Of a stretch of 44,816 nt of DNA, positions 2,515-4,894 are shown piece after piece; the first letter of the stretch is position 1; each line of letters opens with the position of its first letter. The notes under the pieces are model-generated. The model had not been told where the DNA came from. It made no database searches and was given only the letters and a program-made list of their open reading frames with translations. Position numbers and translations under genes: made by a program. Location: the NCBI GenBank assembly GCA_017935165.1, contig JAGBID010000179.1:1-44816 (forward strand), read 5' to 3'. The stretch is from Clostridia bacterium (GTDB lineage: Bacteria; Bacillota; Clostridia; Oscillospirales; Acutalibacteraceae).

Positions 2515-3720
2515 TTATTTTTCCTCTTCAATTTTATAGTATTCGTGAACAAGGCTTCTGTACCCCAGCTTTTTTATATCCTCGTAGCGGAAGTCGTACA
2601 TTTTTTTGGTGTGCCTGCCTGTTGCTAAAAACCTTATATTATACTGGCAATATTCGTCTATTAATTTTAAGGATTCGTCGGTATTTATAATGGGGAAGTA
2701 CCACCTTGCCCAGGTAAGCTCCTTATCCTCTGTGTTTTCGTAAAGCTTTCTGTTGAAGGCTTTTACAAAGGCTTTGGCGGCTTTTTCGTTTGTTAGCTTC
2801 TTTCTTGCCTGCCAGCGCTTTAAGGCTCGCGCCTTCCTGCGCATTTTATCCTTCAGTTTTTTAACTGACACAGGCGAAACGTCCACCTTACCGTTATTAT
2901 AGCAAAAGCCTAAGTATACCCAGGGCTCCATAGGCTTCGTAAACTCCTCTTTTTTAGGGTTAACGCAAAGACCTTTGCTTATTAAATAGCTTTTAATTTC
3001 CTCGGATGCTTTTAAAATTTCAGCTTCATCTTCGGAAAAAACGATAATATCGTCGGAATACCTTGCATACAGAACGCCCTTTTTTTCAAAATACTTATCC
3101 ATATCCGCAAGGTATAAATTGGCAATAAAGGTTGAAACAGGTACGCCTGCCATTATGCCCTTTTTATTTTCCTCGTTTATAAGCTTCTCTCTGTCGTAAA
3201 CCAAGGTGTTATTTAAAAGAGAAATAATAAACTCAGCCGCCTCCCCGTCCTCTTTAAGTGTGCTTAAAAGCAGAGGCGTTATTTTGTCCACGGGTACGGA
3301 ATTGAAATAATCGCTTATATCCACCTTGTAGGAGTACATATTTCTTATATTTTTATAAGAAGTAAGCTTTTTCACAGCATCGCGGACAGATCTTTTCCTT
3401 CTGAAGGAGTAAAGGTTTTCGGGGAAAATATAGTCGTATTTTTCCTGCAAAAGGTAGGTTAAAAGCTTCAAAACGAAGTTTTCGCCCTCGGGAAAGGTGT
3501 AAACCACTCTTTTTTTCTCAGAACCCAGCTTGCTTATATACTTCTTTTTAGGTATGGGAAAATTTTCACCCGAAAGCATTTTGTTTACGATAGGGAGGTA
3601 CTCTTTATTTTCTATAAAAACCTTAAGGATTTTTTCGTCCCTTTTACTTAAGTGACCGCTGTTTATTTTATATTCCAAAAATTCCTGCCAAACATTTTCA
3701 AGCAAAAGCTGACTTAACAT
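2515..3720 (-). CDS. Stand-alone reverse transcriptase (RVT_1-type, 401 aa) with a group-II-like thumb region. It is not embedded in an intron and is a candidate retron-like or defence-associated RT.
   Basis: Catalytic YSDD is encoded at 3049-3060 (tat tcc gac gat on the minus strand). Motif A-like YKVDISDYFNSV, motif B-like GIMAGVPVSTFIANLYL and a LYSFRRKRSVRDAV motif are present. YLGF follows the palm domain. The C-terminal WARWYFP....LIDEY....IRFL segment resembles a maturase or thumb. A strong RBS gggagggg lies 5 nt upstream of the ATG. Confidence 0.85.
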   Translation of the reverse strand: MLSQLLLENVWQEFLEYKINSGHLSKRDEKILKVFIENKEYLPIVNKMLSGENFPIPKKKYISKLGSEKKRVVYTFPEGENFVLKLLTYLLQEKYDYIFPENLYSFRRKRSVRDAVKKLTSYKNIRNMYSYKVDISDYFNSVPVDKITPLLLSTLKEDGEAAEFIISLLNNTLVYDREKLINEENKKGIMAGVPVSTFIANLYLADMDKYFEKKGVLYARYSDDIIVFSEDEAEILKASEEIKSYLISKGLCVNPKKEEFTKPMEPWVYLGFCYNNGKVDVSPVSVKKLKDKMRRKARALKRWQARKKLTNEKAAKAFVKAFNRKLYENTEDKELTWARWYFPIINTDESLKLIDEYCQYNIRFLATGRHTKKMYDFRYEDIKKLGYRSLVHEYYKIEEEK

Positions 3721-3743: not shown

Positions 3744-3877
3744 AAAACAGAGAGAAAGTGCATTAAAGCATGCTTAACATTTCAGCATTCTACCGGGCCG
3801 TACACAGGCAGCTGCCTGCAAAGCTTATAAAGCCTGTGCTGTGCCCTTCGCAGGCGCAAAGCGTTTCTCTCTGTTTT
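3744..3877 (-). ncRNA. Candidate structured ncRNA (retron msr/msd-like) closed by a perfect 14-bp inverted repeat, lying directly upstream of the RT
   Basis: aaaacagagagaaa at 3744-3757 is the exact reverse complement of tttctctctgtttt at 3864-3877. The 106 nt between them has stop codons in all six frames and is G+C-richer. It contains four caggc/gcctg elements (3805-3809, 3814-3818, 3832-3836, 3851-3855), including the palindrome caggcagctgcctg. The element sits between the upstream stop (3899) and the RT start (3720). Strand is assumed to match the RT. Confidence 0.45.
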
Positions 3878-3898: not shown

Positions 3899-4894
3899 TT
3901 ACTTAAGTGCTGCTTTTACTCTGCTTTTTACGTAGGTTTCGCTGTTACGGAAATTGGGAATAAACCTGATGGCGGGTATACCCTTTTCCTTTACAGCACT
4001 AAGAATATTACTTACCTTTCTTTCAGACAAATCACCGGTACCGAAAAGGAATATGGCAAGCTTTATTTCGCCATCCTTCCATAAAGCAAAGTCCGCTTTA
4101 ATATTTTCATCGGTTAAAATGCAGTCCTTATAAATATCATAATCACTGAAATTCTGTAAAAGTAAACCGGCAAAATAATCCTTTGGCTCGCCCCAATAGT
4201 GGTAAATATCCGCAGGGAAGTAACCATCAGTTACGCCTTTGCCAAAAAGCATATTGGCAGCTTTAAGGTCTCTTTTATTTGCATTAACCGTTATAGTCGC
4301 ATTCATACCCTTACAAACGCACTCACTAAAAGCACCAAGAATAGTGTTGTCATCCGTTCTGTCGATATAGGTAATTTTGCAGAAAGGCCCGAAAGCACTG
4401 CCGATAAACACGTTGCTGTCAAGCTGTGCATATCCATCAATAACTTTTCCCGTAAGAGTATTGCCCTTAATTTTGCTTACTGCGAATCTGAATGGTCCTG
4501 CAGGTACCTTTGAAACATCCGCCTCAGTAATAAGGGTACCGTTAATATTCGTTTCTTCATAAGGCTCCCAACTGCCGCTTACAATTTCGCCTTCATCGCT
4601 TTCAATTTCCCATTCACCCTCGTAGGTAATATCCTCTTCGGATGCTTCCCAGCTGCCGCTATAAATAACTTCCTCCTCTTTGTTTTCATCGGGAAGCTCT
4701 ATCTCGATTTCATCAACGGGGACATATTTTTCCTCTTTTTTCTCCTCAGCTTTATTTTCGCTTGTACCAATGCCTAATTTTTCACGGAGGTGTTCCATCG
4801 AATAGGTAAGTCCGCACTCAATGCAGGTAGCGCCCTTGCCGCCCTTGTTGATTTCCAAAGTACCGCCGCAGAGGTCGCAGGTAAGTTTTTTCAT
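3899..4894 (-). CDS. Hypothetical protein and candidate RT-associated effector. Domains in order: N-terminal zinc ribbon, acidic SGSWE-repeat linker, beta-barrel resembling translation-factor domain II, and a C-terminal DUF2726-like (PD-(D/E)xK-fold-like) domain.
   Basis: CDLCGG...CIECG forms the zinc ribbon at aa 6-27. The E/D-rich tract carries two SGSWE units at aa 45-115. aa 131-220, PFRFAVSKIKGNTLTGKVIDG...MLFGKG, follows the EF-Tu domain 2 spacing pattern. The tail ADFALWKDGEIKLAIFLFG....KGIPAIRF follows the DUF2726 pattern vDFvl...laIEldg...GiPvlRf, but with F where the acidic residue is expected. RBS aaggag lies 7 nt before the ATG. That it is coding is secure; the domain calls are from memory. 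Confidence 0.5.
   Translation of the reverse strand: MKKLTCDLCGGTLEINKGGKGATCIECGLTYSMEHLREKLGIGTSENKAEEKKEEKYVPVDEIEIELPDENKEEEVIYSGSWEASEEDITYEGEWEIESDEGEIVSGSWEPYEETNINGTLITEADVSKVPAGPFRFAVSKIKGNTLTGKVIDGYAQLDSNVFIGSAFGPFCKITYIDRTDDNTILGAFSECVCKGMNATITVNANKRDLKAANMLFGKGVTDGYFPADIYHYWGEPKDYFAGLLLQNFSDYDIYKDCILTDENIKADFALWKDGEIKLAIFLFGTGDLSERKVSNILSAVKEKGIPAIRFIPNFRNSETYVKSRVKAALK

Follow-up and report, generated by a model that had tools for sequence, protein, structure and literature searches.

What does a protein that joins a Zn ribbon, an acidic linker, a translation-factor-like barrel and a nuclease-like fold do beside a reverse transcriptase (RT)? The question is raised by a gene on contig JAGBID010000179.1 of the Clostridia bacterium assembly GCA_017935165.1 (Oscillospirales; Acutalibacteraceae), which we analyzed over positions 1 to 44,816 of its forward strand; this whole stretch of 44,816 nucleotides (nt) is referred to as the window. 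The gene (3899..4894, minus strand) begins with ATG behind an AAGGAG ribosome-binding site and encodes 331 amino acids (aa) plus a stop. On the same strand it is followed by an RT-5 non-coding RNA (ncRNA), located at 3746..3875 by Rfam and covariation, with the Rfam core (3755..3859) 40 nt downstream of the gene, and then, 178 nt downstream of the gene, by a UG26-class RT of 401 aa with a YSDD active-site motif (2515..3720), identified by PADLOC RT_UG26, Pfam RVT_1 and its translation. We find that the accessory protein is a dedicated partner of this UG26/RT-5 module, and the predicted fold and residue pattern of its C-terminal domain suggest that it most likely binds nucleic acid rather than cutting it.

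The evidence for a partnership comes from gene order. Of 17 distinct related loci, 15 keep the arrangement accessory gene, RT-5 RNA, UG26 RT, all on one strand; in a single one of these 15 the accessory protein is reduced to a 51-aa remnant. The accessory protein led to nine loci, or eight once the duplicates L002 and L003 are counted as one, from Oscillospiraceae, Lawsonibacter, Faecousia, other Clostridia metagenome-assembled genomes (MAGs) and metagenomes; every one has an RT-5 RNA (77-93 bits) and then an RT that is 50-59% identical to that of the window. A pattern-based metagenome scan with the RT led to two loci only, and RT loci were instead sampled from the contigs that encode them. 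Among the six loci reached from the RT side, a full accessory gene is present in L012, L014 and L015, the C-terminal-domain remnant is found in L013 (1553-1708), and L010 and L011 have none. Because the gene order is conserved, the accessory protein is a dedicated partner of the UG26/RT-5 module, as the original prediction had supposed when it linked the protein to the RT and the ncRNA.

A rival explanation is that the gene is an unrelated neighbor of the RT. A rhodanese gene lies only 29 nt upstream on the same strand, with possible co-transcription, and no defense island surrounds the locus; however, all homologues on sufficiently long contigs precede an RT-5 RNA and a UG26 RT, in diverse Clostridia MAGs whose neighboring genes are otherwise unrelated. 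The survey of co-occurrence did not reveal the wide conservation away from the RT that a chance neighbor would display, and we consider the probability of this explanation to be close to negligible. Within the same loci the accessory protein is 25-35% identical to that of the window whereas the RT is 53-61% identical, so the accessory protein diverges faster, as expected of a phage-facing component.

The C-terminal domain (aa 225-331; 3902..4222, minus strand) was defined by AlphaFold2 (AF2), Foldseek and PADLOC. Modeled alone, it is predicted with high confidence (pLDDT 89.9, pTM 0.84) and shows an alpha-beta-beta-beta-alpha-beta-alpha topology; its tail reads ADFALWKDGEIKLAIFLFG...KGIPAIRF and includes KLAIFLFG. 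Among structures in the Protein Data Bank (PDB), Foldseek ranks first the homing endonuclease I-Bth0305I, represented by its catalytic domain (3r3p; TMq 0.62, probability 1.0), which is itself related by sequence to Escherichia coli Vsr (E 4e-4), and the next matches are Bax1, a restriction-endonuclease-like protein, the R2 endonuclease domain and tRNA-splicing endonucleases. The best named matches among viral structures are a "VSR homing endonuclease," a "DUF559 domain-containing protein" and one labeled "Very-short-patch-repair endonuclease" (TMq 0.60-0.66). The original prediction had proposed a DUF2726-like nuclease fold; a PD-(D/E)xK-type fold is indeed what the model shows, but the nearest relatives are of the Vsr/DUF559 type and membership in DUF2726 does not hold. 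DUF2726 identity was rejected, with no Pfam match at E ≤ 10 for 22 C-terminal-domain sequences and no entry of that name among the top 50 viral fold matches.

Sequence profiles give a different picture from the fold. The Pfam search with the 22 C-terminal-domain sequences returned nothing at E ≤ 10, including Vsr (PF03852), DUF559 (PF04480) and DUF2726 (PF10881), and the whole window protein matched none of these three families at E ≤ 1. Scans of the 331-aa protein against Pfam, NCBIfam and PHROGs found nothing significant, alignment of the C-terminal domain with E. coli Vsr by hhalign gave a probability of 0.05, i.e., no similarity, and a profile of the domain searched against PDB sequences found no nuclease. 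Since no sequence profile connects the domain to Vsr, the relationship is one of fold. The sole family model that matches the domain is PADLOC RTasCOG2852 (E 1.7e-7, 29.8 bits; aa 229-330 on positions 68-166 of the 167 in the model). This model matches 71 of the 72 sequences in our homologue alignment, from which all conservation counts given here are taken, with a best E-value of 8e-15 and scores of 18-41 bits; the match always falls on model positions 67-166, and the N-terminal third of the model is left unmatched by the accessory family.

The pattern of residues across the 72 homologues speaks to function. Equivalences to the catalytic positions were set by the register of secondary structure against the alignment columns. 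At position 268, where an Asp is expected at the start of beta-2 (the equivalent of Asp51), the family has Ser in 29, Asn in 16, Asp in 13 and Thr in nine sequences, the window protein having Asp. The Glu of the E.D pair expected on beta-3 corresponds to position 282, which is Phe in 62 of 72 sequences (F282 in the window), and the Asp of that pair to position 284, which is Ile, Val, Leu or Phe (F284 in the window). The original prediction had pointed to a Phe in place of the acidic residue, and this substitution is thus seen to be family-wide. The beta-3 motif is IFLFG in the window, with VFLI(D/H/N)S as the family consensus, and an acidic motif of the IE.DG type is absent. Conservation is concentrated elsewhere: the most conserved residues of the domain are of aromatic or basic type, namely Y231, Y233, Y240, F241, R292, Y315, R316, N317, D318, Y321 and R325, of which Y321 and R325 are invariant (72/72). 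Acidic residues do occur at position 288, after beta-3 (Asp in 63/72), and at position 239, in alpha-1 (Glu or Asp in 55/72), and position 285 is Asp, His or Asn in most members. Based on the modeled structure and the alignment, the C-terminal domain is assigned a Vsr/DUF559-like PD-(D/E)xK fold that lacks the canonical acidic residues throughout the family. The likeness to the Vsr/DUF559/I-Bth0305I (EDxHD) enzymes lies in the fold and in a sequence pattern, DF...hhhh.hG...R...G..hRF; the difference is that similarity at the profile level is absent and that conservation is missing here at the positions of the catalytic Asp, Glu and His. Because the canonical catalytic acids are lost from this Vsr-like domain, it is most likely a pseudo-nuclease that would bind nucleic acid rather than cut it.

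Alternatively, the domain could cut after all, as a nuclease whose active site has been rearranged, in which case the accessory protein would be a toxic effector that is released or activated by the RT-cDNA complex upon infection. Nucleases are common as defense effectors. In favor of this reading are the fold, which Vsr-type and homing endonucleases share, and the presence of D288, the mostly acidic position 239, the Asp, His or Asn usually found at 285 and D268 of the window protein. On the other hand, the positions equivalent to the E.D pair of DUF559 are hydrophobic family-wide, the equivalent of Asp51 is Ser, Asn or Thr in most members, no profile links the domain to any nuclease family, and the separate membrane proteins encoded in many of the operons look more effector-like. 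We therefore think it unlikely that the domain cuts.

How constant is this domain among relatives? A first search for relatives of the accessory protein found four, a profile search about 75 full-length sequences, and an exhaustive search of representatives 616 at E ≤ 1e-3, 34 of them at E ≤ 1e-30. Among the 234 relatives that were fetched, on which all architecture counts are based, the commonest arrangement is Zn ribbon, barrel and C-terminal domain (86 of 234), which is that of the window protein. The protein had been called unusual in the original prediction, a description at odds both with this count and with the fact that the pairing has already been catalogued (PADLOC RTasCOG2852; Mestre et al. 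2022). A further 27 relatives join the Zn ribbon directly to the C-terminal domain, 27 consist of the C-terminal domain alone, with five more in which it carries a transmembrane segment, and four have two barrels. In two short variants, P0134 and P0149, nothing precedes the C-terminal domain but an amphipathic helix in the former and a transmembrane segment in the latter; these variants (L016 4001-4480 and L017 1997-2512) are likewise followed by RT-5 RNA and a UG26 RT. Because these short variants too precede RT-5 and the UG26 RT, the C-terminal domain is the constant RT-associated module of the family. Two relatives, L014 (2618-3784; aa ~290-388) and P0122 (aa ~160-265), continue for a further ~100 aa beyond the C-terminal end of the pseudo-nuclease domain; on visual inspection this extension looks like another EF-Tu-domain-II-like barrel, with no profile match.

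The middle domain (aa 131-222; 4229..4504, minus strand) was delimited by Foldseek and by Pfam matches of homologues to PF03144. In the full-length AF2 model (mean pLDDT 77) the barrel spans residues ~134-220 and the C-terminal domain residues 237-330. Foldseek searches of the PDB with the barrel returned translational GTPases for all of the top 50 matches except the Pyrococcus small protein Pbp11 (7anu), and the matches include EF-Tu, eEF1A, eRF3, LepA and Hbs1 (best E 6.3e-5, probability 0.99-1.00, root-mean-square deviation ~3-4 Å over ~95-105 aligned columns). At the sequence level, Pfam GTP_EFTU_D2 (PF03144) matches two of the 72 homologues (best E 8.5e-8), the barrel of the window protein itself reaches no Pfam threshold, and a barrel profile searched against PDB sequences gives only a weak match to domain II of Hbs1 (E 0.59). 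The model and these distant matches identify the middle domain as a predicted EF-Tu-domain-II-type barrel at the level of fold and distant homology, which bears out the barrel assignment made from the sequence at the outset. It shares with EF-Tu domain II the barrel fold and a G.V..G.i..Gd.v pattern; it differs in that a G domain and domain III are absent, the barrel being flanked instead by a disordered linker and the Vsr-like domain, and in being an optional module of its family.

This resemblance raises the idea that the barrel mimics EF-Tu domain II, either as a decoy that senses an EF-Tu-targeting phage factor or as a ribosome or aminoacyl-tRNA binder that shuts down translation. Phages and toxins are known to converge on EF-Tu as an interaction hub, and the idea draws on the fold and weak sequence homology that the barrel shares with domain II in translational GTPases and on the presence of an EF-Tu/CdiA complex (7vmc) among the Foldseek matches of the barrel. 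Yet the domain-II-type fold is widespread outside translation, the G domain and domain III are missing, and the barrel is dispensable: 27 relatives have only the Zn ribbon and the C-terminal domain, some 30 have the C-terminal domain alone, and in some the barrel lies C-terminally. Because the barrel is optional in the family, mimicry of EF-Tu is weakened as an explanation, and we regard it as very unlikely.

At the N terminus (aa 1-40; 4775..4894, minus strand), a Zn ribbon followed by an LREKL helix carries the motif C6-x2-C9-x14-C24-x2-C27, in which C6 and C27 are invariant across the alignment and C9 and C24 are kept in at least 90% of sequences. AF2 models residues 1-40 with pLDDT 84-93 and places strands at 12-15, 21-24 and 30-32, while the Zn-ribbon models of Pfam and NCBIfam give sub-threshold matches only. 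Sequence and model together identify the N-terminal module as a Zn ribbon, with metal binding predicted; the CxxC-x14-CxxC ribbon described in the original prediction is present and is maintained across the 72 homologues. The following linker (aa 41-130; 4505..4774, minus strand), recognized as acidic and disordered by its composition, low pLDDT and Trp-centered repeats, has a net charge of -24, and its pLDDT falls below 50 over residues 45-62, 66-92 and 107-116. As had been noted, it contains two copies of SGSWE(A/P).EE, namely SGSWEASEE (aa 79-87) and SGSWEPYEE (aa 106-114), identical at 20 of 27 bases; a third, degenerate unit, YEGEWE, lies between them, so that tryptophans recur at W82, W95 and W109. 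When the sequence is shuffled at constant composition, a repeated 5-mer turns up in about 6% of cases, and the SGSWE repeat taken alone is weak evidence. At least 16 of the 72 homologues have a related motif, (I/V)(I/V)Y(D/E)V.(D/E)WE, once or three times in their linkers, and because of this recurrence the repeat is regarded as a family feature of a disordered tether.

In many of the related operons the accessory homologue is preceded by one or two additional genes. The product of the first type is small and consists of the same Zn ribbon and, after it, two transmembrane helices, ending in FIFKPWKVYGGK; these Zn-ribbon-2TM proteins are paralogous and have at their head the same module as the accessory protein. 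The second type, found in L012 and L014, encodes a 279-305-aa protein that has repeats, a transmembrane region and a linker rich in Pro, with a Zn ribbon at its C terminus. Upstream genes of these fuller operons lie at 1738-2973 in L012, 1322-2621 in L014, 4782-5222 in L005, 5998-6390 in L008 and 698-1024 in L002. By analogy with the SLATT protein of the DRT10 system (DRT, defense-associated RT), the upstream membrane proteins are likely effectors. Because the Zn ribbon is also carried by these membrane proteins, it looks like a shared docking module. In L004 (5992-6471) and L001 (383-844) the upstream gene is an alternative paralogue in which the ribbon is joined to a beta-rich domain of ~100 aa that replaces the transmembrane helices; this paralogue has no family match.

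The RNA component was examined over all 17 loci. The match to Rfam RF03026 at 3755..3859 (71 bits, E 4e-13) does not cover the whole element: the RT-5 RNA is longer than the Rfam model, with a 12-bp closing stem formed by 3864-3875 and 3746-3757, and it contains a 5-bp pseudoknot in which GCCUG in the 5' single strand (3851-3855) pairs with CAGGC in a hairpin loop (3814-3818). Across the loci, 95% of cells in the closing stem and pseudoknot are paired and 11 of the 17 pairs show compensatory changes; none of 500 shuffles reached the observed value, and slid controls gave ~50% pairing. A U-rich run follows the closing stem, ahead of the ribosome-binding site of the RT. A direct repeat, GCUUUGC, occurs at ~3856-3862 in the 5' single strand and at ~3819-3825 in the hairpin loop, flanking ~45 nt, and is partly conserved in divergent loci; by analogy with DRT2 and DRT10, the two copies might be template-flanking repeats. 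The RT itself matches PADLOC RT_UG26 with E 7.8e-166, followed by UG27, a generic RT model and, in fourth place, UG17. A retron RT was considered and rejected, since the NCBIfam model retron_St85_RT gives 65.7 bits, well short of its cut-off of 235, and RT_UG26 ranks first among the PADLOC models. RT-1 to RT-19 were described by Weinberg et al. (2017) as RNA motifs near RT genes whose function is unknown, and our literature search found no paper tying RT-5 to UG26.

The close placement of the accessory gene next to its RNA also bears on a second role that the protein could have, that of a cofactor for cDNA synthesis instead of a reader of its product; it could serve in priming, in processivity, in setting the template boundary, in second-strand formation or in protecting ends. 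The gene keeps a tight and invariant position immediately before the ncRNA, all 72 homologues have Y321 and R325, and protein priming is a feature of related UG RTs. Domain II also serves EF-Tu itself as a module that binds 3' ends. Against a cofactor role, the priming residue of DRT9 and DRT10 reportedly lies within the RT itself. The RT and RT-5 also occur without the accessory gene (L010 and L011) or with no more than its remnant (L013), and synthesis in DRT9 and DRT10 is described as protein-primed. A cofactor role is accordingly given a low probability.

We propose instead that the accessory protein is a noncatalytic nucleic-acid-binding adaptor or sensor for the cDNA made by the RT, acting within an accessory-RT-5-UG26 module; this proposal, which draws on the fold and on the types of residue conserved, has in our estimation an even chance of being correct. 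In this scheme, the UG26 RT would use the pseudoknotted RT-5 RNA as both scaffold and template to produce cDNA, as DRT2, DRT9 and DRT10 do with their RNAs. The conserved Zn ribbon may be the part by which the accessory protein docks, either on the complex of RT and RNA or on partner proteins, and the flexible tether would join the ribbon to a read-out unit composed of the EF-Tu-domain-II-like barrel and the Vsr-like domain. The latter could bind nucleic acid, either the cDNA or its ends, without cutting. In the fuller operons, the signal might pass to the small membrane proteins that share the Zn ribbon, whereas in other variants the C-terminal domain is fused directly to a membrane anchor; the window locus represents the minimal version, which has no membrane partner.

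Several observations weigh against the adaptor proposal. Neither type of upstream membrane protein is present at the window locus, and the persistence of RT and RT-5 without an accessory gene in L010 and L011 indicates that the protein is not essential to the RT-RNA core. The conserved D288, the mostly acidic position 239 and D268 of the window protein leave room for a noncanonical active site. The first 12 kb of the window otherwise contain housekeeping-like genes and no defense island, Mestre et al. (2022) rated the defense association of UG26 as "inconclusive," and our literature search found no later work on UG26 and no experimental study of it. A more specific version of the proposal goes further: a new type of class-2 DRT in which the RT would iteratively copy the ~45-nt RT-5 stretch between the GCUUUGC copies, while the dead Vsr-like domain and a barrel that grips 3' ends would read the cDNA and trigger an arrest of growth, with membrane partners linked by the Zn ribbon as intermediaries or, in minimal loci like that of the window, alone. 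With all of these details combined, this version is improbable.

Upstream of the accessory gene lie the rhodanese gene, which may be co-transcribed with it, and a DUF2200 gene. A 12-bp hairpin with flanking T-runs at 2485-2513 separates the RT gene from a convergent gene for an 824-aa surface protein, and is probably a bidirectional terminator at the 3' end of the RT module. The GC content around the module shows no clear anomaly, i.e., no signal of a foreign island, and no tRNAs were found in the window. A scan of viral contigs with the alignment of the accessory family found no relatives; therefore, nothing points to a phage-borne gene. Defense-type neighbors occur at two of the related loci, a 969-aa ATPase/TPR STAND-like protein in L012 (1-1741) and a TIR/Sel1 protein in L013 (6123-7067), with none near the window locus.

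What, then, does this locus add? The accessory protein is a further member of an already catalogued UG26-COG2852 pairing, and the result by itself reveals no new principle. UG26 is a class-2 UG RT for which the literature search found no functional study, and its characterized relatives use ncRNA-templated cDNA in different ways. The contribution of the analysis is that an orphan Rfam motif, RT-5, is tied to UG26, that this RNA is extended by a closing stem and a pseudoknot supported by covariation, and that the accessory protein belongs to a modular, predicted pseudo-nuclease family whose partners (Zn ribbon, barrel and membrane anchors) hint at the read-out of a cDNA signal. The compact three-part locus of ~2.4 kb, a candidate anti-phage (DRT-like) system, offers an experimental handle.

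Among the closest known counterparts is the UG26 pair of Mestre et al. and PADLOC. Mestre et al. (2022, NAR) place UG26 in class 2 of the UG/Abi RTs and note its association with "cluster 1531," a COG2852/YcjD-like protein; they report co-location in nine of 35 members, compared with 15 of 17 distinct loci in our small sample. The single main-text sentence on the pairing mentions neither a Zn ribbon nor a barrel nor an ncRNA for UG26. The window locus resembles this pair in matching both RT_UG26 and RTasCOG2852 with the two genes adjacent on the same strand, and differs in that only positions 67-166 of the 167-position RTasCOG2852 model are matched, at 18-41 bits.

Retrons offer another parallel: they too consist of three parts, their RNA is likewise closed by a long-range stem, and their RT also comes with an accessory gene; however, the RT of the window belongs to the UG/Abi lineage, and RT-5 is listed in Rfam as an sRNA motif rather than as a retron msr/msd. 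The class-2 UG RT relatives are a further point of comparison. According to recent preprints, they make repetitive ncRNA-templated cDNA. DRT2 performs de novo gene synthesis, DRT9 produces poly-dA, and DRT10 (UG17) generates telomerase-like tandem repeats within a tripartite system of RT, ncRNA and a SLATT membrane effector. The UG26 locus shares with DRT10 a class-2 UG RT, a structured ncRNA bounded by a pseudoknot or stem beside the RT, and one accessory gene; in addition, related UG26 operons encode small membrane proteins, and UG17 is the fourth-best PADLOC model for the RT of the window. It differs in having a soluble protein with a predicted Zn ribbon, barrel and pseudo-nuclease domain where DRT10 has SLATT, in its gene order of accessory, RNA and RT, and in an RNA that belongs to the RT-5 family.

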